From Fidelibacterota bacterium (GTDB taxonomy: Bacteria > Fidelibacterota > UBA8477 > JABMPR01): DNA of 64,000 nt. Location of the stretch: assembly GCA_018673925.1 (NCBI GenBank), contig JABHBL010000019.1, forward strand, positions 45,960 to 109,959, written 5' to 3'. Within the stretch, counting starts at the first letter, position 1; each line of letters opens with the position of its first letter. Both the position numbers and the translations under genes were made by a program. Shown here one piece after another: positions 1,429 through 63,486 of this stretch. The notes beneath the pieces are model-generated. The model made no database searches. It saw only the letters and a list, made by a program, of their open reading frames with translations, and had not been told where the DNA came from.

Positions 1429-2106
1429 TTAAGTCCTGGAGAGCACTTGCCCAAGCCACGCTTGAATGTGTTCCAGCTCTGATTGGGAAATTTCATGACC
1501 CATAGCATATTCATGATGTTCCAGGTCTGCAATGGGATCCCAAAATGAAACAATCTGACGACCAAATTCTATCGGAATGACATTGTCAAGGGTACCGTGA
1601 CCTGCAAAAACTGGGAGACCATTAAATCTTGTAGTATCACCGGAAAGCTCAACCATATCTTCAGGCAATCTGCCACTCATGATGAGCAAGGCTCGTAGGA
1701 GTTCTGGTTTTTGCAGACTTATCAGATTTGAAATAGTTGCCCCCTGGCTAAATCCAGCCAGGATTATCTGTTTTTCTTGGATAATCCCATCCAGTTGCAT
1801 TTTGCTAAGAATATCAATCACGCCCAGGGTGCTCACTTTTGCCTGATCAATGTTAAATCTAAGGCTGCCATCAGAGAGCATATCAATATCAAACCATGAG
1901 GCACCACCATAAGGAGTTAGACCACTGCCCCGGATGCTCAGCACCTGGATATCAGGGTCAAAGTAAGATGCCAGACCCATGAGATCATACTCATCCGCCC
2001 CATAGCCATGCAATAGCACTAGTGTGGCTCTAACCTGCTTCAAATCTCGAGCAGGTCGATGTAGGACACTTCTATCATTAATATCTAGCTGTTCAATATT
2101 ATTCAT
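1429..2106 (-). CDS. phospholipase/carboxylesterase-family alpha/beta hydrolase
   Basis: LLHGYGADEYDL, GFSQGA (GxSxG nucleophile elbow), catalytic His near C-terminus. Confidence 0.7.
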   Translation of the reverse strand: MNNIEQLDINDRSVLHRPARDLKQVRATLVLLHGYGADEYDLMGLASYFDPDIQVLSIRGSGLTPYGGASWFDIDMLSDGSLRFNIDQAKVSTLGVIDILSKMQLDGIIQEKQIILAGFSQGATISNLISLQKPELLRALLIMSGRLPEDMVELSGDTTRFNGLPVFAGHGTLDNVIPIEFGRQIVSFWDPIADLEHHEYAMGHEISQSELEHIQAWLGQVLSRT

Positions 2107-7862: not shown

Positions 7863-9143
7863 CTAGCGGGCATATATCTTCAGTGAATTGCTCAGGGAGT
7901 TGGCCAGATCAGTGGCTGCTTGGCTCACCATTTCTCCACCAACAGGAGCCACGGTTTCACCCTTCCTGGCAAGTCGTGCAGTACGTGAATTGAGCGCTCG
8001 GGAGTCTCCTTTTATAACTGCCCACTCAGTAGAAAAATTTGATTTTCCTTCAAAAGCTTCACTTTTAATAACTTTTGATGTGCGTACATCCACAATCCTG
8101 TAGGATCCCTTGATCACTGCCTTAGTCGTGCGGGTATAGTGTCTGACCTTCGCCTCAACGTCAGCGTAAATATTGCGAGTCTTGGTCTTACCCTCTTTAT
8201 TTTTGTACTTTTCAGTATCAACAACTACCCGCTTTGCTTCTTTGTATTCTCTATTCACAGTCTGTACCGGGGTATAAATAATCTGTGTTATTTTTCCCGT
8301 TAATATTTCATGGACACCCAGTAGGGCTCCTACTTCCATGGCGGTTTCTTCATTCACCATGCCGGAGAGTCCCAACTTTTGCTCAGCAATTACACGATCC
8401 AATTGATCACGACTGATAAGCTCCAGAAATTCCGTAGCCGAAGGATCTTTCATGACCGAGGTCACCATTTGATCCACCACCAACTCTTCGATGGCTCCAT
8501 ACCTTTTATTCTTACCACTTAAATCTTCAAAGGGGAATACAGCGATTCTTTTTACGCCAGCTTGCCTGGTTGCCTCATACCTGGATTCAGAATCCTTATA
8601 TCCTGGAACAAAGCTGAAAGCTTTTTTGAATTGTTTTGCTGCGGCTTTTTGCTGGGATAAATCAAGTGAGAGGGAGAGGGCTGCACCGGCAGCATAATGA
8701 GATTCAGCTGCCAATTGTTTTGCCTCGGCAAGCTGATCTGAATAATCAACTATTTCCAGTTCCAGGAGTACTCCAGTTTTAGGATGGCGAACTGGAGGCA
8801 AATTCTTGACAGCATCGTGAAGATTCACTAAGCTCTGGTATTCACGAGCTAGACCATCATATCTGAAGTCATCAGAGCTGGATTCCAACTCAGAAATTCT
8901 ATTTTCATGAACGCGATTTGCCATTAGAAAAGCATCCGCCATAAGAATCTGGCTTTTGTCATAATCCTGACTCATTTGAAGGCTCCGCGCCAACACAAAA
9001 ACGGCTGCATCATAATCTGCCCGGCCATATGAATCGCGTGCACTTCTTTCCAGCTTCGCATGTTCACTAAAATATGTACAGGAGATTGTACTCAACAATA
9101 CAACCAAAATTCCAAGTTTATAAATACTCCGCCCTGCTTTCAT
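7863..9143 (-). CDS. lipoprotein with CsgG/LpoB-like C-terminal domain
   Basis: lipobox LSTISC; C-terminal IAVFPFEDLSG...LISRDQLDRVIAEQKLGLSGMVNEETAMEVGALLGVHEILTGKI matches the CsgG/LpoB pattern (IAVLPFEN...ILKEQ...SG..D...A.ELGK.LGA). Confidence 0.5.
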   Translation of the reverse strand: MKAGRSIYKLGILVVLLSTISCTYFSEHAKLERSARDSYGRADYDAAVFVLARSLQMSQDYDKSQILMADAFLMANRVHENRISELESSSDDFRYDGLAREYQSLVNLHDAVKNLPPVRHPKTGVLLELEIVDYSDQLAEAKQLAAESHYAAGAALSLSLDLSQQKAAAKQFKKAFSFVPGYKDSESRYEATRQAGVKRIAVFPFEDLSGKNKRYGAIEELVVDQMVTSVMKDPSATEFLELISRDQLDRVIAEQKLGLSGMVNEETAMEVGALLGVHEILTGKITQIIYTPVQTVNREYKEAKRVVVDTEKYKNKEGKTKTRNIYADVEAKVRHYTRTTKAVIKGSYRIVDVRTSKVIKSEAFEGKSNFSTEWAVIKGDSRALNSRTARLARKGETVAPVGGEMVSQAATDLANSLSNSLKIYAR

Positions 9144-9381
9144 AGCTGATCTCCTAACTGTGTCATGCCTACCCTACGAATCCTTACAGATAAACAATAT
9201 AAATGAGTCACCCCAATATTTATATACTATTGACGATTTTCCTTCAATTATTCTAATATAAATCATTGACATGAGCCCTATTGACTACTATTTTTATCAT
9301 GATTTTACAGGGACATCGGTCTGGTCGTATTCCCCCGCTTCCGGATTTTAGTTGTCCCTGTTTCTTTTTCTAAAAGAAACC

Positions 9382-9412
9382 AAAAAAAAGCGACCAAGGT
9401 CGCTTTTTTTTA
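9382..9412. terminator. bidirectional intrinsic terminator (GCGACCAAGGTCGC flanked by A8/T8)
   Basis: hairpin 9390-9403 with A-run upstream and T-run downstream; immediately after the stop of the minus-strand STAS gene. Confidence 0.6.
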
Positions 9413-9429: not shown

Positions 9430-9765
9430 TTATTTTTTTAAAGCAGTCTCCTCGTCATCAACGATGGTAAATACATCATCCAACTTGGATATCTTGATGA
9501 GGGAAGCGATTTTCTGCTGCGGTTTCACCAGGAAACACTCCCCACCCTTAATCGTTGCCTGGCGTTTGGCAAAGAGTAATCCGCCCAGACCTGTACTGTC
9601 AACCATTCTGACATTTTCCATGTTGATGATAATATTCTTGAAGTCTGCTTCAGCAATCGCCATGAAAATATCACGCTTAAATGCCTTCACTCCACGAATG
9701 TCAAAAGTTGTATTTTGAACTCTCACAATGAGAGTATCATTTTTAAATTCTGTCTCAAATTTCAT
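9430..9765 (-). CDS. STAS-domain anti-sigma-factor antagonist (SpoIIAA/RsbV-like)
   Basis: 111 aa; ...VDSTGLGGLL... conserved phosphorylatable Ser/Thr region of anti-anti-sigma factors. Confidence 0.75.
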   Translation of the reverse strand: MKFETEFKNDTLIVRVQNTTFDIRGVKAFKRDIFMAIAEADFKNIIINMENVRMVDSTGLGGLLFAKRQATIKGGECFLVKPQQKIASLIKISKLDDVFTIVDDEETALKK

Positions 9766-9927
9766 TTAATGGGATTCCCAATTGCACAAAAATATTTAGT
9801 GCTTTTAACTCTATTAGATGTCTTAAAACCATCAAGACCAATTCCGAGCTCAATAACCGTAAGCCTGAATATATTCGGTGTTCTTTGGGAGGGCAAGGTC
9901 ATAACGGCACTATTCTGAAATAAAATA

Positions 9928-11658
9928 TTGCGTTTTATTCTATATCAACGTTCTCAAAATTCTATTAAAATGTTTGCTATGGAAAATGGACTCAGAATAG
10001 CGCGCAATTTTTTGGGCCTGGTCATTAAATTGTCCATAATCCCCTGTGTTTTCTATATCTCACCTGGACTGATTCATGATCCAACTCCTGAAACTCTAAG
10101 TTCGCTTCTGGGAGGGATATTCATTCTACTTGGTCTATATGGGATGATGAGTTCTGATCTATTAATTCTAAGATTTGGAGATGGTAAACTTTACTTCTCT
10201 ACAAAAAGTTCACGTCTAGTGGATGTAGGGTTATATGCTAGAACGCGACAACCATTTTTTTGGTTTTTCTCGATCTACCAGTTTGGAATATTATTTGTAC
10301 TCACAGGTTTCGACGGGTGGGTTTTGCTGCTTTCTCTCAGTATTTCTTTGATTTACCTCCTTTGGCTTCTCCTGGTCCAGGAACCGCTCCTATCTAGGAC
10401 TTTGGGTAACTCATATCTTCAATACAGAAAAAATGTTCCCTTCTGGTATTGGAAATTTAAGATAGCCGAAAATCTCAAAATTAGTTTTCGCTCACAGTTT
10501 GTGTGGCTTATAGGTATGCTGATTATTCGGCCATGGTATAGAGTTAAAGTTGAGGGAGTTGATAATATTCCTCATAACAAACCCTTTCTAATCGTATCAA
10601 ACCATGAGTGCTATCTGGATCCATTCTTGTTTGCCATATTTGTACCCTATGAAATTAAATTTGTGACAACTGCTGATATCTTCACGACCCATTTGATGCG
10701 ATTTTTACTCAAGGGAACTGGTAGCTTTCCCATGCGCAGACATAAACAGGACTTAAAATCAATCCGCACCATGATTAGAATGATAAAAAAGGGTCAGGTT
10801 GTATGCATTTTCCCAGAGGGTGGCAGATCAACAGATGGTTCTCCCCTACCAATCCTTAAGGAAACCTTAAAATTAATCCAACACTGTAAGGTACCCATAT
10901 TACCAGTTCATCTGGATGGTGCCTATGAGATATGGCCCAGATGGGCGCCAAATCGCAGGCGCGGGAAGGTCACTGCCTCCTTCAAGCCCTTAATTCCACT
11001 AGAAACTCAATCGGATTTAAAAGATTTAGAGCACCAAATCAAAACCCAAATCTTTGCAGAGGAGAAAATCTTCCGTCCTGTGAAAAGTAGAGCAATTACC
11101 AGAGGCATGGAGCACTTACTATGGGCATGTTATAAGTGTCATACCCGCAATTCAATTGAGGTCATTTCAGGTCATAGTGTCAAGTGTAACCATTGCAATA
11201 CTGAGTGGCTGGTGGCAAATGATTATTCTTTGAAAACTTCCACAGAAAAAGAATCTATCTCCAGCATTCAATGGATTAATAAAATAGAAAATGATGTTTT
11301 AGAATATCCCCTTAATCTTGAGCATTCATTTGCCCTGGAAAATGGTGAATCAGTTCATCTCCACACCCCTATATTGAGATATACAAATGAGAAGACTGTG
11401 GTTGAGGGAAGTGATTTAAGTTTGACACTCTCAAATCAGAGAGTAGCACTATCTGATAAGCAAAAATTGATTCACTCATGGACTCTATCGAGCATCACGA
11501 TATTTACGATGGATTATTTCAATGCTGTTTCTATCGGTGTAGGGGGTGTCAGGCATAGCTTTAAACTTCCACCAGACGAGATCACTCTAAAATGGCAGAC
11601 TTATTTTGATATTCTTAAGGCTGAAAATCGAAAGAACGATGATAATTCTTTCCTATAA
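9928..11658 (+). CDS. tripartite fusion: ICMT/PEMT-like membrane methyltransferase domain + PlsC-type lysophospholipid acyltransferase + C-terminal zinc-ribbon domain
   Basis: N-term about 180 aa polytopic with LVDVGLYARTRQPFFW (cf. ICMT/PEMT LVT.G.Y...RHP.Y); middle has HX4D (SNHECYLD) and FPEGGRS acyltransferase motifs; C-term CYKCH...CNHC; TTG start (alternative ATG at 9970). Confidence 0.6.
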   Translation: MRFILYQRSQNSIKMFAMENGLRIARNFLGLVIKLSIIPCVFYISPGLIHDPTPETLSSLLGGIFILLGLYGMMSSDLLILRFGDGKLYFSTKSSRLVDVGLYARTRQPFFWFFSIYQFGILFVLTGFDGWVLLLSLSISLIYLLWLLLVQEPLLSRTLGNSYLQYRKNVPFWYWKFKIAENLKISFRSQFVWLIGMLIIRPWYRVKVEGVDNIPHNKPFLIVSNHECYLDPFLFAIFVPYEIKFVTTADIFTTHLMRFLLKGTGSFPMRRHKQDLKSIRTMIRMIKKGQVVCIFPEGGRSTDGSPLPILKETLKLIQHCKVPILPVHLDGAYEIWPRWAPNRRRGKVTASFKPLIPLETQSDLKDLEHQIKTQIFAEEKIFRPVKSRAITRGMEHLLWACYKCHTRNSIEVISGHSVKCNHCNTEWLVANDYSLKTSTEKESISSIQWINKIENDVLEYPLNLEHSFALENGESVHLHTPILRYTNEKTVVEGSDLSLTLSNQRVALSDKQKLIHSWTLSSITIFTMDYFNAVSIGVGGVRHSFKLPPDEITLKWQTYFDILKAENRKNDDNSFL

Positions 11659-22150: not shown

Positions 22151-22246
22151 TTCTAGTATCCTTCCTCAATCAAATACCAACTTTGACTAATTGAAAAGCA
22201 ATTTGGTTTTCTTATGTTAGTGGCCTATCATTTGGAGCCTCAGCGT

Positions 22247-25200
22247 ATGAATCGATATCAGTATTTTCTCACATTTGTTCTCGTTGCAATTCTATTTTCC
22301 TGTATTTCGAACAAACCAGTGAGCACCGATTATGACTATTCCAGTATGGATCGGACCACAAAAAAAGCTTACCAAAGTGTAGAACGATTTCTTGCCACTA
22401 ACACTAAGGCAGATTCTCCTCTCCGATTGAATAAATACACGAAAATTGATACCATCATCGTTGACTCTGATTCGCGGCAACTTCAAATCCATTTTAATCG
22501 GAATTTTGCCAACATACCTATTCGAGAAAATGTGGTCAAAGACGTGCATTCGAGTCTTAAAGATTTTTTAGGTGGAAAGTTTAAAGACTATAGTCTGAAA
22601 ATTTATGCTGTTGATTACCCTATTGAAGATCTCATCCCAAATTATTTTCGTGGTAGCAAACGTAGTTATGACCGCAGTAGGATGCCTATGCCTGAGAATA
22701 GGTCTCTCCCATTGGTCCGCAACTTGAGCCATAAATGGACCCCTTCTTCTGGTCTATATAATCGTAACATTGCACTGTGGCACAGTCATGGTTGGTATTA
22801 TGAGCAAGAGCTGCAGCGTTGGGAATGGCAAAGAGCTCGCGTTTTCCAAACTGTGGAAGATTTACTCCCCATGTCCTTTACGCTAAAGTATCTGGTTCCC
22901 ATGCTAGAAAATGCTGGTGCCCAAGTTTTTATGCCCCGAGAGCGTGACCTCCAGACCAATGAAATCATCATTGATAATGACACACCAGGTGTAAAATCGG
23001 CTTATCAGGAATATGACTCAAAATCAGAAAAGTGGAAAATGCTGGACCAACCAGGATTTGCCATTGGTACTCCACCATATGTCTCAGGAGACAATCCCTT
23101 TTTTATGGGAACATCCCGTCACATCAAGGCAGACACCAGTGGAAGCGCCAAAATACGTTGGATACCCAGCCTTCCAGAAGCAGGAAAATATGCAGTCTAT
23201 GTCGCCTATAGTGCTGCCGACAGCAACATAACAGATGCCCACTACACTGTTTTTCATACAGGTGGTCAAACTGAATTTATAGTCAATCAGCAAATCGGTG
23301 GTAGTACCTGGATATACCTTGGAATCTTTGATTTTAATCAGGATCTCAATGAGGATATCCATCGAGTTGAACTCACCAATAAAAGTACTGAATCAGGTAA
23401 ATATGTAAGCGCAGATGCGATCCGTTTTGGCGGCGGAATAGGAAACGTATCACGTGAAGGTCAGGTGAGTGGCCGACCAAGATTTGCTGAAGCAGCTCGT
23501 TATTATCTGCAATATGCTGGAATGCCAGATAGCCTTGTTTACAATTTGAATGAGGATGAGAGCGATTATAAGGATGACTATCAATGCCGTGCAGAATGGG
23601 TCAACTATTTGCGTGGTGCGCCCTATGGTCCAAATTTGGATCGTCAGACCCCTGGGTTAAAAATCCCTATTGATCTTTCCTTCGCTTTTCATACCGATGC
23701 TGGATTTACACGCAATGATACGGTTATCGGCACCTTATCCATATACAGTACAGAGGACTTTGAAGAGCGTGAAATTTTTCCTGATTCCATGTCACGAATG
23801 ACCAACCGGGATTTGGCAGACATTCTACAGACTCAAATTGTCAATGATATTCGTGCCAAATATGATCCAACCTGGACACGCCGCATGCTTTGGGATCGAG
23901 GATATAGTGAGGCTTACCGGCCCAATGTACCCTCCGTCTTATTGGAACTCCTCTCCCACCATAATTTTCTTGATATGAAATTTGCAAATGATCCTCGTTT
24001 CAAATTCGATGCAAGCAGGTCCATTTACAAAGCTATGGTTAGATACATTTCCACCCAATGGAATCTTGAATATGTCATCCAACCACTTCCAGTTTCGCAT
24101 TTTCAGGCAACCTTTACTGAAACTGGTGAACTGAGACTTCAATGGCTGCCTGTGCTTGATCCGCTAGAGGTGACTGCCTCCCCTGAAAAGTATATGGTGT
24201 ACACAAAGGTTGAGGATGAAGGATTCGACAATGGTATTGTTGTCGATAGTCCCTATCTCGATACCCCTGCTCCTGAAGAAGGTCTCATATACAGTTATAA
24301 AGTGACTGCCCTCAATTCTGGTGGTGAGAGCTTTCCTTCTGAGATTCTCTCCGTATGCAATATGGGTGGAGATAAAACACCTGTCTTAATTGTGAATGCC
24401 TTTGATCGCATCTCAGCAGGAAGTACCATTGAGACTGATGAATACCTCGGGTTCGTTGATCTCTGGGATGAAGGTGTCTCAGATGGTTATGACATGAACT
24501 ATATAGGCTCCCAATACGATATCCTGGCAGACTCACCATGGCTAGATGATGATGAACCCGGGCATGGTGCCAGTTTTGGGGATATGGAAACAACCCTCAT
24601 CCCGGGAAACAGTTTTGATTTTCCTCATTTACACGGGAAATCTTTACGCGAGGCTGGCCATTCATTTGTCTCATCAAGTGATGAAGCCATCTGGGATGGT
24701 CAATTAGATATAAACAATTATACCTTGTTGGATCTGATTTTTGGGGAGGAAAAGGAAGTTTCTGGTCCAAAGGATTTCAGCCCAAGAGATTTTCGTGGGT
24801 TTCCCAAGGCATTTCAAGAGAAAATCACTTCCTATACCCGATCAGGAGGAAATCTTTTTCTCAGCGGTGCCTATGTAGGATTTGATCTCTTTGACAATGG
24901 GAATGACTCACTGGATATGCAATTCGGTGAAGATATCCTCAAATATAAATTTCGAACAGATCATGCGGTGAAGACCGGTAAACTTAGTGTCGTCTCTCAA
25001 GATTTGTTCCAATTTGAAACCACACAGACTTTAGAGTTCAATACCCGTTTCCACCCATCAATGTACAAGGTAGAATCACCTGATGCCATTGAGCCCTCTG
25101 TTCCAGAAGCGCTCACCATACTACGCTATGGCGAAAATAATACTAGCGCCGCTGTTGCAGCCTCAGGGGAGTCTAACATAGTGGTATTCGGTTTCCCTTT

Positions 25201-25273
25201 TGAAAGCATCATTTCAGAAACCAGCAGAGATGAGGTCATGGCCTCGGTTCTTAAGTTTCTTGACTCCAAATAA
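22247..25273 (+). CDS. large secreted lipoprotein, possible Xly/golvesin-like carbohydrate-active protein with degenerate amidase_3-like region
   Basis: about 1000 aa; lipobox ILFSCIS after Met12; region ...IALWHSHGWYY...LVPMLENAGAQVFMPRERD resembles an MurNAc-LAA amidase_3 fold; beta-rich Ig/FN3-like segments; family assignment tentative. Confidence 0.35.
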   Translation: MNRYQYFLTFVLVAILFSCISNKPVSTDYDYSSMDRTTKKAYQSVERFLATNTKADSPLRLNKYTKIDTIIVDSDSRQLQIHFNRNFANIPIRENVVKDVHSSLKDFLGGKFKDYSLKIYAVDYPIEDLIPNYFRGSKRSYDRSRMPMPENRSLPLVRNLSHKWTPSSGLYNRNIALWHSHGWYYEQELQRWEWQRARVFQTVEDLLPMSFTLKYLVPMLENAGAQVFMPRERDLQTNEIIIDNDTPGVKSAYQEYDSKSEKWKMLDQPGFAIGTPPYVSGDNPFFMGTSRHIKADTSGSAKIRWIPSLPEAGKYAVYVAYSAADSNITDAHYTVFHTGGQTEFIVNQQIGGSTWIYLGIFDFNQDLNEDIHRVELTNKSTESGKYVSADAIRFGGGIGNVSREGQVSGRPRFAEAARYYLQYAGMPDSLVYNLNEDESDYKDDYQCRAEWVNYLRGAPYGPNLDRQTPGLKIPIDLSFAFHTDAGFTRNDTVIGTLSIYSTEDFEEREIFPDSMSRMTNRDLADILQTQIVNDIRAKYDPTWTRRMLWDRGYSEAYRPNVPSVLLELLSHHNFLDMKFANDPRFKFDASRSIYKAMVRYISTQWNLEYVIQPLPVSHFQATFTETGELRLQWLPVLDPLEVTASPEKYMVYTKVEDEGFDNGIVVDSPYLDTPAPEEGLIYSYKVTALNSGGESFPSEILSVCNMGGDKTPVLIVNAFDRISAGSTIETDEYLGFVDLWDEGVSDGYDMNYIGSQYDILADSPWLDDDEPGHGASFGDMETTLIPGNSFDFPHLHGKSLREAGHSFVSSSDEAIWDGQLDINNYTLLDLIFGEEKEVSGPKDFSPRDFRGFPKAFQEKITSYTRSGGNLFLSGAYVGFDLFDNGNDSLDMQFGEDILKYKFRTDHAVKTGKLSVVSQDLFQFETTQTLEFNTRFHPSMYKVESPDAIEPSVPEALTILRYGENNTSAAVAASGESNIVVFGFPFESIISETSRDEVMASVLKFLDSK

Positions 25274-40962: not shown

Positions 40963-42393
40963 TTAGGGTGAAAGTTGTCTGATATATTCCTCACCTCGGC
41001 TCAGGACGGAATCGTGATCCTCCGGCGAATGGAGTTTATTCAGCACATTTAGTGTGTATTCTCGCAACCTGCTTAATGCATCAGGTGAAAACTCAGTTTG
41101 CCACTGATTTAATGAATAACCTGGCCAAATCTGGCTGTGTTGTTCATGTATGTCTCGGTATTGAGCCAGGGTAGCCTCGGACAGGAGAAAGCTTCCTCCC
41201 GGTCCCACTGAATGGATATCTTTCAATGGATCGTTATTCTCATCCAATACAAAACCTGCTGCAAATTGTCTCACCTGACGAATCACTTCATCGGCATAGA
41301 CCACCGTGGTGGGTGAAAATGCCTGCGAATCAAAATTTCCCCCAACAAAAGGAGCCAGTCCCACCTTACCTATGGAATTGGTAAGATGATTCATCCACAA
41401 GGTACCACTGGCTAATAAATCTGGCCCCCATCCGGTACCACTACCAGATGTTCCAGCATGTGGAATGTGATAGTGATCCATCATCTCAGCACAAGCCAGG
41501 TTGACCAGCATGGTTTGAGATGTATAGGCGGAAATCATATTCTGCATTTCAAAAACAGAAGGTAGACTCCCTAAAATGACTGGTGTCCCAGGTTTAATTA
41601 ATTGAGAGAATACCAGACCTGCCAATAATTCAGCATTGAGCATGACTAGGGTGCCCTCAGCACTGATCGGTGCGGTTGCCCCCGACATCCCATAGCTGGA
41701 GAAAATGAAAGGTAGACCGTGATCGATGGTAGAAAACATTTTGTCTGTGGTGTCCTCATTTAACACCAGGGGCGTAATTGGATTGAAATATGGGAGCACA
41801 AATGGCTTTTGGGAGAGATTACCACGGAGATGTTCCAACATACTGAGAGCCAGATCAAATTGTTTCGGCTCAGAAATTAATATGCCTAGTGGTTTAGTTG
41901 TATTGGCCATCATCTCCAGGGTGCCTACTACCTCACCCATCTGGGTATCGTCGTTCTGGATCACCCCTGGAGTTGATACAAGATCAAATTGGGTAAGCGT
42001 ATTGCCAAGGGCTGTAGCGATCTCAACATGTTTCCGAGTAAAAGGGATGGCGGAGTCATTTTCAGGGTTCTGATACCAGGAGTTGGTCACTCCGATGCCA
42101 TAAATCGTTCCCGATGGCTGATGCCCTCCCATGGAGAAGGCCAAATTTCCGTCCCTATTATACATATCGATTTGAGCGGGTACAGACTGGAGAGCTTGCT
42201 CAACGATTTCACCGGGTATCCGTACAAGATTGTCGTCAAAACCACCAACTGCTTCTGAGAATACTGCTCTGGCGCGTTCTGAATCTACCCGTATCCCAGT
42301 GTGGGACAGCACTTTAAGGGAATCCTGGTGAACTTTTTGGATTTGCTCCCCATTGAGGATTGAAATGTGGGGTTTAATATGGTTCAGTACCAA
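40963..42393 (-). CDS. MttB-superfamily methyltransferase (non-pyrrolysine; trimethylamine / glycine-betaine:corrinoid methyltransferase-like)
   Basis: 476 aa; N-terminal LNGEQIQKVHQDSLKVLSHTGIRV... typical of the MttB/MtgB family; no in-frame TAG. Confidence 0.75.
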   Translation of the reverse strand: MVLNHIKPHISILNGEQIQKVHQDSLKVLSHTGIRVDSERARAVFSEAVGGFDDNLVRIPGEIVEQALQSVPAQIDMYNRDGNLAFSMGGHQPSGTIYGIGVTNSWYQNPENDSAIPFTRKHVEIATALGNTLTQFDLVSTPGVIQNDDTQMGEVVGTLEMMANTTKPLGILISEPKQFDLALSMLEHLRGNLSQKPFVLPYFNPITPLVLNEDTTDKMFSTIDHGLPFIFSSYGMSGATAPISAEGTLVMLNAELLAGLVFSQLIKPGTPVILGSLPSVFEMQNMISAYTSQTMLVNLACAEMMDHYHIPHAGTSGSGTGWGPDLLASGTLWMNHLTNSIGKVGLAPFVGGNFDSQAFSPTTVVYADEVIRQVRQFAAGFVLDENNDPLKDIHSVGPGGSFLLSEATLAQYRDIHEQHSQIWPGYSLNQWQTEFSPDALSRLREYTLNVLNKLHSPEDHDSVLSRGEEYIRQLSP

Positions 42394-56457: not shown

Positions 56458-57435
56458 TTACTTCTTGCTATCGGTTTTGTCCGGACCAGAAAGATTCTTC
56501 CTCATGGATGAATCAGCCTGGATGTTTTCCATCCGGTAATAGTCAAGAATACCAAGATTTCCCTGGCGGAAGGCTTCAGCCATAGCACGTGGAACTTCTG
56601 ATTCAGCTTCCACAACTTTGGCCCGCATTTCCTGGGTCTTGGCCTTCATTTCCTGTTCTTCAGCAACAGCCATGGCACGGCGTTTCTCAGCAACGGCCTG
56701 AGCAATGTTCTTATCTGCATCAGCTTGATCCATTTGGAGAGTAGCACCGATATTCTTACCGACATCTACATCAGCAATATCAATGGATAGAATCTCAAAG
56801 GCGGTTCCTGCATCGAGACCTTTGGAGAGAACATTTTTGGAAATAATATCAGGATTTTCCAATACTTGTTTATGGGATTGAGAGGAACCAATGGAACTAA
56901 CAATTCCTTCTCCAACGCGAGCCAGGACAGTCTCCTCACCAGCACCACCAATAAGACGATCGATATTGGCACGAACCGTCACTTTGGCCACTGAGAAGAG
57001 CTGAATTCCATCCTTGGCGATTGCTGAAACCCGGGGAGTTTCAATCACGCGGGGATTTACACTCATTTTCACCGCATCCAATACATCACGACCAGCTAGG
57101 TCAATGGCTGCAGCGCGTTGAAATTCCAGATCAATATTGGCTTTATCTGCTGCGATGAGAGCCAGAACAACTTTGTTCACATCTCCTCCAGCAAGATAAT
57201 GGGCTTCAAGAACGTTGGTATCCATATCCAGACCGGCTTTTCTCGCACTCACCAGAGAATTGATAATCAGTGGTGGTGGAATCCGGCGAAGTCTCATTCC
57301 GATGAGAGTCAATAGGCCGACATAAACTTGTGCAGCTGCTGCACTTATCCACAATCCAATTGGAATGAAATAGGTAAATAGAACTAGAAAGGCGACAAGG
57401 CCAATCAGTATGAACATCAATGGTATAGCTTCCAC
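56458..57435 (-). CDS. floA: flotillin-like protein FloA (SPFH/band-7, YqfA/UPF0365)
   Basis: N-terminal TM hairpin then ...[43 protein letters not shown]... diagnostic of FloA. Confidence 0.8.
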
Positions 57436-57455
57436 AATTCCTCCTGTGTTAATTA

Positions 57456-58805
57456 TTAAACTTGTTTGTCCACAACCACTCGATTTCCATCTATCCGAAT
57501 GATTGTAACTTCTGAGTCTTTATCAATAAAGGTGCCTTGGGTAACAACATCTACCCTCTGTCCTTCGATCAGTGCGGTTCCAGCGGGTCTAAGGGATGTT
57601 ATGGCAACACCACTCTTCCCCACCATTTCTTCTAGTCCCAGACTTCCGCTATATCCCTCAGCCTGAGTTTCGGTTTCTGGTAGACTGATTCTCTGCCAGG
57701 CCTTCGTTTTAAGCATTCGTTTAACCATAAGACCCAAGCCGATCAGGCCGCCAATAATGGCAATAACCAATCCCCAGAGAGCTGCATTAATATCACCAGA
57801 AGTTGGCGCTATGGGCAGCAGCATGGTAAACATGGCATAAATCATGACAATTATACCAAGAATTCCCACCACTCCGAACCCGGGAATTACAAAAGCTTCG
57901 ATCCCAAGTAGGACAATACCTCCAATCAAGAACAATAACTCCATCATACTGGCTAAGTCTGCGATAAATGATGTGGAGAAGAAGAGAAAAAGAGCGAGTA
58001 ATCCCACGGTTCCAGGTATTCCCCAACCTGGACTCTGGATTTCAAAGATAAGTCCTAAAAATCCAAGTGTCATGAGTAGCGAACTGACGATGGGGTCTGT
58101 AAGGAAGCGAACAATGGATTCAGACCAGGTGGGAACGACATTAATAATTTCCTTATCTGAAAAACCGAAATGGTCAAGGACTTCACCCATTGAATCCATT
58201 TGGTAGTCAGCCATTCCATATTTCAAAGCTGTAGAGGTTCTCAAGGTAAGTAATTTGCCTTCGTTGGCTCCCTCGATGTCATCAAGAAAAAGCGTATCCC
58301 CTTCTGCAGAAACCAGTGTATCAATATCCAGGGATTCATCTACCATGGCCATGGCAATATCCGGGTTGCGTCCTTTAGATTCAGCAGTTGAGGCCATTTC
58401 CTCACGCATATAGGACTGGGCTTTCTCACCAGCTTTCTGGCTTTGCCCATCTACGACCGTAGTTGCCCCCATAGTCGCTCCAGATCGCATAATGATGGTA
58501 TCACATGCCAATGTTATAAGAGAGCCTGCAGAGATGGCTTTGGTGTTGACGAAGGCATAAGTCTCTATTTTTGAATTTAGCAGGGCATTCTTCATCATCG
58601 TGGCAGCATCCACTCTTCCACCAAAGGTATCCATATCCAGGATGATGGCATCACCTCCGGCTGCATTTAATGAGGGAATCTGGCGTTCAAAGAAATATGC
58701 CAATCCCATATCAATGGTTCCCTTTACCTCAAGAATATAGACCTGTGGGAAAATGAGGATGGGTAATAACAAAAGCAGGAATATTCGTCGCATAGCTGAT
58801 CCCAT
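57456..58805 (-). CDS. NfeD-family membrane protein (ClpP-class serine protease domain + OB-fold; YqeZ-like)
   Basis: signal peptide; ClpP/crotonase-fold [15 protein letters not shown]...[14 protein letters not shown]...[13 protein letters not shown]; about 5 TM; C-terminal beta-barrel; immediately upstream of floA. Confidence 0.75.
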
Positions 58806-60075: not shown

Positions 60076-61905
60076 TTAGACTGTATCGCCCTTGGCAAAC
60101 TGCAGGCGATACAATTTTTCATATAAACCACCCGCTTTACTCAAACTGGCATGATTCCCCTGTTCGACAATCTCACCATGGTCCATGACCAATATCTTAT
60201 CCGCACTTAAAATTGTTGAGAGACGGTGGGCAATGACAATCACGGTTCGACCTTTCATTAAGGTCTCAATGGCGGATTGAACCGCTTTTTCAGATTCTGT
60301 ATCCAGAGCAGAGGTTGCTTCGTCCAGAATAAGAATTGATGGATCCTTCAGTAGGGCTCTGGCAATGGCGATACGTTGTTTTTGACCCCCCGAGAGTCGA
60401 GCGCCATGCTCGCCCAGCATGGTTTCATACCCATCTTCCAGATTAAGAATAAAATCATGGGCATTGGCTTTTTGAGCGGCTGCTTCCACATCTGAGGCAC
60501 TACTCTCCATGCCATAGGCAATATTGTTGTAAACTGTGTCATTGAAAAGGATGGTCTCCTGAGAGACGATGCCTATCTGTCTGCGAATACTGGATCGAGT
60601 GAGTTTGCGAATGTCATTACCATCAATACTGATGCTACCTGCATTGATATCATGAAAACGGGGAATTAGATCCACGACTGTGGTTTTACCAGCGCCTGAG
60701 GGTCCTACCAAAGCGACAACTTCCCCTTTTTGGATAATTGTATCCAGATTCTTGATTGCCTGCATATCAGAGTTATCATAAGCAAAATCGACTGACTCAA
60801 ATCGAATTTCTTCCTGAAACTCTGGTAGATCCTGGCTGCCACTTTCGTCACGAATAGCCGGTTCAATATCAAGAACCTTAAAGACCCGACCTCCGGCTGC
60901 TACACCAGTTTGAATACTAATATTGACCTTAGCCAAATTTCTGATGGGTTGATAGATAGCGAATAGGATGACGATAAATCTTAAAAAGTCAGAGCTGCTA
61001 ATGGTGCCATATTCCAGCACCTGGACACCACCAAGCCACAGCAGTACTACAGCCATGCTGACACCTAGCATTTCAGTCACAGGCAAGGATAAACTCTGGA
61101 GGCTGATCTGCCGGAACATGAGTCGAAATAATTTTTGGGCTTCAGTTCCAAAACGCTTGTTCTCATTGTCTTCATTCACAAAAGCCTTGATGATCCTAAT
61201 CCCCGATATCATCTCGGTAAATCGCGAGGTAATCTCACCTAGTTGGGTCTGTACCCGTACTACCTTACGTCGAATACTTTTGCTTATTACTGCAATAAAT
61301 AAGGTGGTAATTGGAATAATAAGTATGGAAATCAGGGTCAGTTGCCAGTTAATGATGAACAGGATACTGAGATAGGCGATAATGTAGAGCGGTTCAATCA
61401 CTAATGGATGAAAAGTCGTGGCCAGTGCTTGATTCACTTTTAGCACATCGTTCATGGCGAGAGAAATGAGATCACCACTGCGGCGGGTTTGAAAAAAACT
61501 CAGTGGTTGCTGCAGGAAATGTTGATACAGCTTTAATCGTAGGTCTTGAACTACTTTCGCCTGGACATAACCAGTGAATAGCTTATTACCATAATAGGCA
61601 ATCGATTTAATCAGATAACTAAACAGTATAACCAAGGCCAGGGTGGCTAGAGCATCAACCGGAGTGCCGGAAAAGAAGTACTCACTGGTTAATTGTTTTA
61701 ACCTTTCGTTGAGATCAATATTACCAGTCAGGGATTCAGCTGGTGTCACAATCTGCTCATCAGGATTAGCAAAAATAGTCGTAATAAATGATGCTGATAA
61801 CCACAGCGTCAGAGAATGAAAGGCCACATTGATGATTGAGAAACCCACACCCACGCTTATTTGCGCCCAATACGGTTTGATCAGTTTTAGTATTCGTAAA
61901 TACAT
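60076..61905 (-). CDS. msbA: ABC transporter permease/ATPase, MsbA-like lipid exporter
   Basis: 6 TM N-domain; Walker A GPSGAGKTT, signature LSGGQKQRIAIARALL, Walker B ILILDEATSALD. Confidence 0.8.
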   Translation of the reverse strand: MYLRILKLIKPYWAQISVGVGFSIINVAFHSLTLWLSASFITTIFANPDEQIVTPAESLTGNIDLNERLKQLTSEYFFSGTPVDALATLALVILFSYLIKSIAYYGNKLFTGYVQAKVVQDLRLKLYQHFLQQPLSFFQTRRSGDLISLAMNDVLKVNQALATTFHPLVIEPLYIIAYLSILFIINWQLTLISILIIPITTLFIAVISKSIRRKVVRVQTQLGEITSRFTEMISGIRIIKAFVNEDNENKRFGTEAQKLFRLMFRQISLQSLSLPVTEMLGVSMAVVLLWLGGVQVLEYGTISSSDFLRFIVILFAIYQPIRNLAKVNISIQTGVAAGGRVFKVLDIEPAIRDESGSQDLPEFQEEIRFESVDFAYDNSDMQAIKNLDTIIQKGEVVALVGPSGAGKTTVVDLIPRFHDINAGSISIDGNDIRKLTRSSIRRQIGIVSQETILFNDTVYNNIAYGMESSASDVEAAAQKANAHDFILNLEDGYETMLGEHGARLSGGQKQRIAIARALLKDPSILILDEATSALDTESEKAVQSAIETLMKGRTVIVIAHRLSTILSADKILVMDHGEIVEQGNHASLSKAGGLYEKLYRLQFAKGDTV

Positions 61906-61912
61906 AAGGCTG

Positions 61913-62545
61913 CTAGTTTAGGAATTCCTGCAGTGCTTGGCGAGAGATTTCACCCTCTCTGAGAATTTTGAAAGGTGAGCTCGAAACATCGATTACCGTG
62001 CTTCCCCTGGAAGGGTTTATGGGTCCAATATCGATCATTAGATCAATCTGATTCGCATAATACGCTTCCACTTCAGATCTCGAGGACGCTGGTTTCATTC
62101 CGGCTGGATTGACACTAGTTGTGGTGATGGGCTTCCCAAACATTTCAGGTAATTCACGGGAAATGCTATCCCCTGGGACCCGAAACCCAACTGTGCCCAT
62201 TTGAGAGATCAATTGTGGAGCGAATTCATAATCAGTTCTGCAGATAACCGTCAGAGCCCCAGGCAGAAAAGCTTTGATTAATTCAATGGCTTTGTTGCTA
62301 AGGTCTGTGGCCATCTCGAGTAACTGGTGATTAGATGACAGGAGTACAGAGATTGGTGAATTGTCACGGGATTTGAGTGAATAGAGTGTGTCTACTGCTT
62401 TTGTGGAAGTCACATCTGCTCCTAAACCATAGAGCGTGTCCGTGGGGTAGACTATAACCTGATCTTCTTCCAGTGCGGTTCTTATTTCAGTAATTTCTTT
62501 GGCTGAAAAGGGATTGGCTTCAACGGCAGGACTGATGATTCTCAT
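61913..62545 (-). CDS. tsaC: L-threonylcarbamoyladenylate synthase (TsaC/YrdC family)
   Basis: VIVYPTDTLYGLGAD YrdC motif; start moved to Met16, which abuts the upstream lpxL-like stop. Confidence 0.85.
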   Translation of the reverse strand: MRIISPAVEANPFSAKEITEIRTALEEDQVIVYPTDTLYGLGADVTSTKAVDTLYSLKSRDNSPISVLLSSNHQLLEMATDLSNKAIELIKAFLPGALTVICRTDYEFAPQLISQMGTVGFRVPGDSISRELPEMFGKPITTTSVNPAGMKPASSRSEVEAYYANQIDLMIDIGPINPSRGSTVIDVSSSPFKILREGEISRQALQEFLN

Positions 62546-63486
62546 GAAGCTGACTTCGCTTTTCTTTCCTGACGATCCAGATCCCTCCAACGTCGGTGAA
62601 ACCAGAAATATTGTTCGGGATACTTGCGAATTTCTTGTTCTAGTTTGGAAGTCAGAGTTTGAGTAAGGTCATGCACCCACTCCTCAGTCATCGTTTCAGG
62701 AAGATCATAATCGATCTCTTCAATCTTAATCTTGTAGCGGCCGCGGTGCTGAGTACAGGCCAGGACAACCAATTTGGGTTTCACACGATAGGTCAGTACA
62801 GCTGCTCCCCGAGGTGTTGATGAGGGGATACCAAAGAAATCAACTTGAACCCCTTTTTTACCCTTATACTGATCCCCTACCACAGCTAATCCATAGGTTC
62901 TCACCAAGGCTTCTTCAAAAGCCGACATGCCTGACCAAGAGTTTACCAACTCCAATTGATGATATTCACGAATCTTTGTCAGAAACCAATCAGCTAGTGG
63001 ATTTTTTTGAATTCGATAGATGGAAGCTGCGCCATCACCAAGTCCACCTACATAGCGACCAGCCATTTCCCAGGAGCCAAAGTGTCCGGTAAAGTATAGA
63101 ATTGGTTCCTGTTGTTCTATGGATCCCAGGACATATTCATCCAGACCTGGTGCATCTACGAGAGAACGCGCTTTACGTTGGGTGATCATCCACAGTTTAA
63201 GGGTAGAGATAAATCCTTCGCCCCAATGCAAATAACAACCCTTGATAAGGGATTCAATGTCAGCCTCCCCCATAGCGGGAAAAGCCCTACGAATATTCCT
63301 AGCTACCGTGGATTTACGTTTGGTGAGCAACTTATAGGCAATCCAGCCAAAGCCTCGGCCAAGACGCCATGAAAGCGCCCAGGGTAGGATAAACAGGATC
63401 AGATTGAAAACCATCATCAACAGGAATTCAAGCGTATATCTGATATATACCAGGGATGACACCGATTTATTATTGGGAGCTGCCAT
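62542..63486 (-). CDS. lipid A biosynthesis lauroyl/myristoyl (Kdo2-lipid IVA) acyltransferase, LpxL/HtrB family
   Basis: N-terminal TM, ...ILYFTGHFGSWEM... (HX4-type acyltransferase region); adjacent to msbA. Confidence 0.7.
   Translation of the reverse strand: MAAPNNKSVSSLVYIRYTLEFLLMMVFNLILFILPWALSWRLGRGFGWIAYKLLTKRKSTVARNIRRAFPAMGEADIESLIKGCYLHWGEGFISTLKLWMITQRKARSLVDAPGLDEYVLGSIEQQEPILYFTGHFGSWEMAGRYVGGLGDGAASIYRIQKNPLADWFLTKIREYHQLELVNSWSGMSAFEEALVRTYGLAVVGDQYKGKKGVQVDFFGIPSSTPRGAAVLTYRVKPKLVVLACTQHRGRYKIKIEEIDYDLPETMTEEWVHDLTQTLTSKLEQEIRKYPEQYFWFHRRWRDLDRQERKAKSAS

Follow-up and report, generated by a model that had tools for sequence, protein, structure and literature searches.

What kind of enzyme is encoded by a gene that joins a membrane methyltransferase fold, an acyltransferase and a cysteine-rich tail in one chain, and do all of its parts still work? 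This question is raised by a single gene in a 64,000-nucleotide stretch of a Fidelibacterota bacterium genome (assembly GCA_018673925.1, contig JABHBL010000019.1, positions 45,960 to 109,959; hereafter the window, meaning the whole stretch). The clade of this fusion gene is called Marinimicrobia here, a name used alongside Candidatus Neomarinimicrobiota and SAR406; its members are abundant, uncultured ocean bacteria. An initial annotation, made from the sequence of the window, had pointed out the fusion. Our analysis confirmed that observation and found the interpretation of the domains largely right, with corrections concerning the tail (PH-like), the spread of the architecture (wide) and the methyltransferase hallmark (eroded). 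We see about even chances that the fusion gene encodes one inner-membrane enzyme of lipid metabolism, in which acylation would be coupled, at least ancestrally, to methylation of the head group.

Three modules in a single polypeptide

The open reading frame (ORF) that the initial annotation had placed at 9928-11658 on the forward strand is present, and its mechanical translation from a TTG codon gives 576 amino acids (aa). The true start of the gene is most likely the ATG at 9970 (Met15 of the 576-aa form), because the homologs are 559-562 aa long and the database protein P0001, which is 100% identical to the window fusion protein, has 562 aa; the alignment of the fusion family starts at MFAMENGL. 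Residue numbers below refer to the 562-aa form (576-aa numbering minus 14). The G+C content of the gene (~40%) is similar to that of its surroundings, and its neighbours are ordinary chromosomal genes. The features of the gene are as follows.

9970..11658, forward strand: fusion gene, 562 aa plus stop, with ATG 9970 as the likely start
9970..10464, forward strand: ICMT/PEMT-like integral membrane domain, residues 1-165, four transmembrane helices and a short C-terminal helix
10246..10260, forward strand: degenerate 'RHPxY' motif, R93-Q94-P95-F96-F97
10378..10383, forward strand: degenerate 'EE' motif, Q137-E138
10486..10539, forward strand: helix 173-190 joining the membrane domain to the acyltransferase (AlphaFold2 secondary structure)
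10540..11064, forward strand: PlsC/AGPAT-type acyltransferase, residues ~191-365
10603-10620, forward strand: HX4D motif
10810-10827, forward strand: FPEGGR motif
10933-10944, forward strand: subfamily-specific WPRW motif, residues 322-325, invariant in the alignment of relatives
11128..11196, forward strand: predicted zinc ribbon CxxC-N15-CxxC (C387, C390, C406, C409), short beta-strands in the AlphaFold2 model
11335..11652, forward strand: PH-like domain, residues ~456-561 (predicted structure)

The three features named in the initial annotation are all present, well above what chance would give. An AlphaFold2 model of the fusion protein, made with a 39-sequence alignment, was confident (pLDDT 86.6, pTM 0.81) and showed three folds joined in a single polypeptide: an ICMT/PEMT-like membrane domain, a PlsC-type acyltransferase, and a zinc ribbon with a PH-like domain. 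By hydropathy and the positive-inside rule, the membrane domain is predicted to be N-in/C-in and its conserved polar motifs to face the cytoplasm, and in this predicted topology all modules of the protein are on that side.

The central module is the most clear-cut. The HX4D and FPEGGRS motifs on which an acyltransferase had been proposed belong to a strong PF01553 match (E=1e-25, 90.5 bits vs a cutoff of 23; residues 205-328 of the 576-aa form), and H212/D217 of HX4D and F281/E283/R286 of FPEGGR are invariant across the 39 aligned relatives, as are the motif-II arginines. Fold comparison of the model gave a PlsC-like alpha/beta fold with structural matches to PlsC, GPAT and tafazzin. Judged by its motifs, the domain is catalytically intact, and in the window protein it is very probably active. 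The match to the PlsC structure 5KYM further suggests that helix 173-190 of the model is the positional counterpart of the N-terminal membrane-association helices of PlsC. The best NCBIfam match of the domain is an Aas-type domain (E=6.9e-27), and its nearest sequence relatives beyond its own family are Aas-type and MFS(LplT)-fused lysophospholipid acyltransferases. A second PlsC-type gene was not found in the window, where the only other member of the wider clan is of the LpxL/M type.

The N-terminal domain is a genuine member of the ICMT/PEMT superfamily, as had been proposed. A profile of 26 N-terminal domains matched the ICMT structures 5V7P (E=3.6e-10) and 4A2N (E=6.8e-9), as well as Tam46 (8XKU_G), an ICMT-like protein, with a weak hit to a sterol reductase; structural comparison likewise identified an ICMT-type helical membrane fold. 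Moreover, distant fused relatives pass the Pfam cutoff for PEMT (37-40 bits), and some that for ICMT (up to 27.9 bits). A generic membrane anchor of the DUF kind at this end, a possibility raised in the initial annotation, is ruled out by the ICMT profile and fold matches together with the conserved signature positions described below.

The C-terminal module (residues ~385-561) begins with the zinc ribbon. The four cysteines of CYKCH...CNHC, already read as a zinc ribbon, are invariant both among the 39 full-length relatives and in a set of 16 diverse modules from the C-terminus, the most distant relatives included, and the two CxxC pairs thus make up a predicted zinc ribbon. The domain that follows had been called one of no recognisable family. 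This holds for sequence families, as no Pfam model (window protein and relatives scanned) or NCBIfam model (window protein scanned) matched the C-terminal module, but not for the fold, which is recognisable as PH-like: the fold comparison shows a beta-sandwich of seven strands, closed off by a C-terminal helix that bears the near-invariant K541-W542. A profile search for the module in other protein contexts gave just seven hits, mostly fragments; as far as searched, the PH-like module occurs solely attached to the acyltransferase subfamily of the fusion protein.

In the coupled reaction that we propose, the acyltransferase would move an acyl chain from acyl-ACP (acyl carrier protein) or acyl-CoA onto a phosphate-bearing lysolipid in the cytoplasmic leaflet, which may be lysophosphatidic acid (LPA) or a lysophospholipid such as lyso-phosphatidylethanolamine (lyso-PE). 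Such an acceptor is suggested by the retained arginines of motifs II and III and by the Aas/LplT-type nearest relatives. The ICMT/PEMT domain, family-wide or at least in the canonical members, would use S-adenosylmethionine (SAM) to methylate that lipid's head group. The likeliest reaction would be N-methylation of an ethanolamine-type amine, as by PEMT and OlsG, the alternative being O-methylation of a phosphate, as by LmtA. The zinc-ribbon/PH module may dock on the membrane or on a partner and tune the activity.

Spread of the family and its methyltransferase signature

To see how common this architecture is, 1.84 billion cluster representatives (50% identity) were searched with a full-length profile, and 1,106 proteins were returned at E<=1e-30; the module architecture was classed for the best 150 of these with a separate hidden Markov model per module. 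All three modules were found in ~85 of the best 150, the acyltransferase and zinc-ribbon/PH module alone in ~50, and the N-terminal domain and acyltransferase with other tails in ~15. The form without the N-terminal domain is a widespread sister form of ~380-430 aa. Among species-representative genomes, the following groups have the full form.

Marinimicrobia: 26 metagenome-assembled genomes (MAGs), 36-86% identity to the window protein
Bacteroidia: 7 MAGs, 24-30% identity to the window protein
Aminicenantales (Aminicenantes): 1 MAG
Spirochaetes: 1 MAG
Poribacteria: 1 protein

The fusion thus recurs in at least five phyla and dozens of 50%-identity clusters, all from uncultured organisms. A unique architecture is ruled out by the deep profile search and the scan of species-representative genomes, and what the initial annotation had called an unusual fusion is unusual in being unstudied, not in being rare. 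These proteins are an uncharacterised family of three-module lipid enzymes built from known enzyme kinds, rather than a categorically new system.

The search also brought up rearranged relatives. P0231, P0241 and P0263 are circularly permuted, with the zinc-ribbon/PH module ahead of the acyltransferase, and P0204 and P0229 (~1100-1142 aa) combine a PEMT-like domain and an acyltransferase with PF00884 (sulfatase/LtaS/EptA-type) as a third head-group enzyme module. Furthermore, a Marinimicrobia-type locus with the STAS gene described below, at <=69% identity, was found in MAGs titled 'uncultured Lentisphaeria bacterium' (L020, L030, L032, L037 and L039), a label that is probably a taxonomic mislabel.

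A clue to whether the N-terminal domain can still methylate is given by the motif pair RHPxY...EE, known from the Ste14p literature as the hallmark of ICMT and PEMT. Among 161 fused proteins, ~96 of them outside Marinimicrobia, the wider signature G-x-Y...R-H-P-x-Y...E-E-x-x-L...G-x-x-Y-x-x-Y...P is well kept. Position 2 of RHPxY is His in 151 of the 161 and Gln solely in the window protein and P0001-P0004; the first position of EE is Glu in 97 and Gln in 58 (the latter typical of the Marinimicrobia clade), and the second is Glu in 153. The exact RHPxY/EE is present in 79 of the ~96 fused relatives outside Marinimicrobia. Within Marinimicrobia, deep branches retain EE, the main clade has RHPxF/QE, and the four closest relatives of the window protein have RQPxF/QE, while the window protein itself reads RQPFF...QE. 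The signature YARTRQPFFW singled out by the initial annotation is therefore present, but it is degenerate compared with the RHPxY...EE of canonical relatives and is not an intact hallmark.

The hallmark of the window copy is thus partly eroded, and because RQPFF...QE replaces RHPxY...EE, a working methyltransferase cannot be assumed there. The replacements H94Q, Y97F and E137Q are polar or near-isosteric, and the remaining signature positions are intact. No other module evolves as fast in the Marinimicrobia clade as the N-terminal domain (mean pairwise identity 36% vs 64% for the acyltransferase); the ~20 positions conserved at >=85% in it are almost exactly the ICMT/PEMT signature positions, and Gln137 itself is conserved. 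Such conservation despite fast evolution of the domain argues that the pocket is still under selection. The window copy may have kept its acylation step but have a methylation step that is weakened, changed or gone; that this copy still methylates is possible, if somewhat doubtful. The family as a whole was probably bifunctional in its ancestry, which is suggested by the ICMT profile and fold matches, the relatives that pass the Pfam cutoffs, the 79 of ~96 canonical hallmarks, the recurrence in at least five phyla and the PF00884 additions.

Several observations weigh against a coupled acylation and methylation. The window protein fails the hallmark at three of four positions (H94Q, Y97F and E137Q), and mutagenesis of Ste14p and human PEMT reportedly found the first Glu critical for activity or AdoMet binding. 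On the window sequence alone, PF04191 stays sub-threshold (E=0.0025, 18.7 bits vs a cutoff of 25). Arg173 of ICMT, which binds the prenylcysteine carboxylate, aligns with Ser/Ala in the fusion family, so that the substrate of the N-terminal domain should differ from that of ICMT. The curated PlsC model TIGR00530 is not reached by the acyltransferase (77.1 bits vs 102.95), and the acceptor therefore need not be LPA. Moreover, no stand-alone PEMT-like gene was found beside the unfused relatives (a 'Rosetta stone' check), no phosphatidylethanolamine-synthesis or SAM-related genes were found near the fusion gene in the window, and a characterised protein of this architecture did not turn up in searches of the literature, the initial annotation having known of none either.

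These points lead to the alternative that survives best, namely a plain PlsC/lysophospholipid acyltransferase whose ICMT-fold domain is, in Marinimicrobia, a pseudoenzyme that serves as a non-catalytic anchor or as a scaffold for binding a lipid or ligand. A retired methyltransferase would account for the erosion of RHPxY/EE (RHPxF/QE in the clade, RQPFF/QE in the window protein), the rapid evolution of the N-terminal domain and the failure of the window sequence at the Pfam PEMT cutoff. It also has a parallel among the closest PDB matches, since Tam46 in the Ycf2-FtsHi complex (8XKU_G) is an ICMT-fold structural subunit. The widespread sister form does without any N-terminal domain, and the fakA-degV and plsY genes downstream of the fusion gene in L013/L039 suggest a housekeeping PlsC step. 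However, a mere anchor would hardly hold on to ~12 signature residues, polar or glycine, at >=85% while the identity of the domain falls to 15-36% in the clade; Gln137 is conserved instead of drifting, and the window protein retains its other signature positions. Taken together, we regard the pseudoenzyme as a serious possibility but a rather doubtful one.

The divergent STAS neighbour

The gene beside the fusion gene had been noticed in the initial annotation as a hint of envelope-stress control, and its features are listed here.

9430..9765, reverse strand: single-domain STAS protein, 111 aa, with a DSTG serine motif (PF01740, E=2.8e-17)
9868..9896, reverse strand: STAS promoter, sigma-70-like TTGCCC-N17-TATATT, from a promoter scan, conserved across the phylum, placed back-to-back with the fusion gene's upstream region
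9381-9412, reverse strand: STAS terminator hairpin

The STAS protein scores 63.8 bits against the anti-sigma-factor-antagonist model TIGR00377 (cutoff 53.45). Its gene is directly adjacent and divergent to the fusion gene in 24 of the 26 Marinimicrobia species loci; in one of the other two it lies 2.7 kb off, and in the other the contig ends early. The adjacency persists down to 33-36% identity of the fusion protein, and throughout the phylum the STAS protein is far better preserved than its fusion neighbour (phmmer E 1e-43 to 1e-69 over 111 aa). Next to the fused genes of other phyla, STAS was never seen in the loci compared. The spacer between the two genes has a constant length of 190-245 bp across the Marinimicrobia loci, and an alignment of 21 intergenic regions shows AATATAT and, ~19 nt further on, GCAAG without variation. 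Based on the promoter scan and the alignment, this invariant block is the STAS promoter on the minus strand, and a shared operator or RNA element was rejected on the same reading; a search of the spacer against Rfam gave no RNA family, with sub-threshold hits at the STAS terminator only. Having its own promoter and its own terminator hairpin, the STAS gene is monocistronic.

The link is thus a real phylum-level regularity with no evidence of mechanism. It is unlikely, as we judge it, that the fusion proteins are self-contained lipid-finishing enzymes that combine re-acylation and head-group methylation with a PH/zinc-ribbon sensor and, in Marinimicrobia, a phospho-switchable STAS partner. The narrower idea of a STAS protein that, depending on its phosphorylation state, docks on the zinc-ribbon/PH tail and acts as an on/off switch of lipid remodelling under envelope stress is highly unlikely. 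The divergent pair is indeed kept while the downstream and CsgG-like genes vary, its spacer is constant, the STAS sequence has the serine motif of phosphorylatable antagonists, and the tail is a protein- or lipid-binding fold. But the conserved spacer element is merely the STAS promoter, the window ORFs of >=150 aa were found to include neither a HATPase_c kinase nor a PP2C phosphatase nor a sigma factor, the same tail occurs in many phyla without a STAS neighbour, and the SSF transporter gene is syntenic too, so that plain conserved gene order suffices as an explanation. Of the earlier hint, the gene and its adjacency are therefore real, whereas envelope-stress control is still a guess, given the monocistronic STAS gene, the missing partner-switching genes and the lack of STAS in other phyla.

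Known lipid enzymes and the genomic surroundings

The coupled enzyme that we favour resembles several known proteins in part. Compared with PlsC of Thermotoga maritima (5KYM), which has ~240 aa and a short helical anchor, the fusion protein adds a four-helix ICMT/PEMT front and a zinc-ribbon/PH back, and the WPRW motif, invariant in the fusion subfamily, distinguishes it from PlsC. With ICMT/Ste14 and PEMT (PF04140, PF04191; 5V7P, 4A2N) it has in common the membrane fold, the cytoplasm-facing motif and the signature spacing, which in ICMT/PEMT and the fusion family alike is G-x-Y...R-x-P...E-x-x-L...G-x-x-Y-x-x-Y...P; unlike them, the window protein has a degenerate hallmark, a prenylcysteine-binding Arg that is not conserved, and a fused acyltransferase. 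The same principle is seen in Aas and the LplT-acyltransferase fusions, in which a PlsC-type domain is fused to a membrane module handling the same lipid, but the partner module is an ICMT/PEMT fold here and an acyl-ACP synthetase (Aas) or an MFS flippase (LplT) there. The fusion protein stays far below the whole-protein NCBIfam cutoff for Aas (93.6 vs 1221 bits, a local domain match only), and a Pfam scan found no AMP-binding or MFS domain in it. Compared with PH, GRAM and GLUE domains (TAPP1 PH, Lam6 PH-like, Vps36 GLUE), the fusion tail has no detectable sequence family and carries a zinc ribbon in front.

Methylation of lipid head groups, as we propose it for the N-terminal domain, is carried out by bacterial membrane SAM enzymes, namely LmtA, the lipid A 1-phosphate methyltransferase of Leptospira (PMC4402001), and OlsG, an ornithine-lipid N-methyltransferase (PMC12971839). 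The likeness is one of the described reaction; LmtA and OlsG are stand-alone enzymes that act on lipid A or ornithine lipid, and the genes of such a lipid do not flank the fusion gene. It is barely probable that the fusion protein is itself an aminolipid enzyme, coupling OlsA/GlsA-like O-acylation of a lyso-ornithine or lyso-glycine lipid to OlsG-like head-group N-methylation: weak NCBIfam matches to OlsA (lyso-ornithine lipid O-acyltransferase, E=3e-6) and OlsF, the fused relatives in Bacteroidia, from which glycine and serine lipids are known, and the description of OlsG as related to phospholipid N-methyltransferases (PMC12971839) would fit, but OlsA/OlsF membership is ruled out by scores of 26.4, 24.5 and 15.7 bits, far under the curated cutoffs of 300, 300 and 620, the acyltransferase domain is far nearer the Aas/PlsC types, and no OlsB/GlsB-like N-acyltransferase was seen beside the fusion gene in the loci examined.

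The membrane-lipid remodelling of bacteria beyond model organisms is poorly mapped, and the conserved fusion is a concrete candidate for a coupled acylation and methylation step as well as a clear case of a PH-like fold on a bacterial lipid enzyme. Every named copy is labelled only '1-acyl-sn-glycerol-3-phosphate acyltransferase' in the databases, and this ordinary PlsC naming hides two-thirds of each protein. Marinimicrobia are abundant in oxygen-poor ocean waters, and if their proteins are active, they could be a source of methylated phospholipids there.

As to the genes around the fusion gene, a CsgG/LpoB-like lipoprotein gene and an SSF transporter gene lie upstream beyond STAS, and an OPT transporter gene and an adenosine deaminase gene lie downstream. 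The lipoprotein gene is listed here together with the loci of a ~320-aa gene from other genomes.

7863-9143, reverse strand: lipoprotein-like protein, 426 aa, past the STAS terminator on the same strand (CsgG E=1.2e-10, weak LpoB similarity)
L040:3327-4343, L043:5677-6666, L045:5542-6492 and L047:5695-6855: ~320-aa gene

The CsgG-like gene is present in the main Marinimicrobia clade and missing from the deep-branching loci. The downstream neighbours vary by Marinimicrobia subclade, being OPT and adenosine deaminase, 3-hydroxyacyl-CoA dehydrogenase and acetate kinase, or FakA-DegV and PlsY; the dehydrogenase gene lies downstream in L005, L034, L035 and L037. In two deep Marinimicrobia species (L013:6748-9210 and L039:5553-8120), the fusion gene is directly upstream of a FakA-DegV fusion (fatty acid kinase) and PlsY, which are bona fide phospholipid-synthesis genes. 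In Bacteroidia the context consists of an SDR gene, a UDP-glucose-dehydrogenase-like gene and the ~320-aa gene. The latter matches no Pfam family, immediately follows the fused gene and is absent from the window; it also occurs near the fused gene of the Aminicenantes MAG, there adjoining a radical SAM/SPASM gene, and is a possible functional partner. Since the downstream genes differ by clade, conserved pathway neighbours were rejected and no single pathway emerges.

Elsewhere in the window, an Abhydrolase_2 phospholipase/carboxylesterase-family protein is encoded ~8 kb upstream of the fusion gene (1429-2106, reverse strand; E=2.9e-25); it is conceivable as a source of lysolipid, with no evidence of linkage to the fusion gene. 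An MsbA-like ABC exporter (60076-61905, reverse strand) and an LpxL/M-type lipid A acyltransferase (62542-63486, reverse strand; PF03279, E=1.8e-47), the sole other wider-clan acyltransferase of the window, indicate that the organism makes lipopolysaccharide. Genes for a FloA flotillin-like protein (E=6e-160) and an NfeD-family membrane protease, the classic membrane-microdomain pair, lie at 56458-58805 on the reverse strand. A 1019-aa protein (22214-25273, forward strand) has the Golvesin C-terminal domain as its sole Pfam match (E=1.1e-25). Finally, a 476-aa MttB-family (trimethylamine methyltransferase-like) protein is encoded at 40963-42393 on the reverse strand by an uninterrupted ORF and is therefore probably a non-pyrrolysine member of its family.

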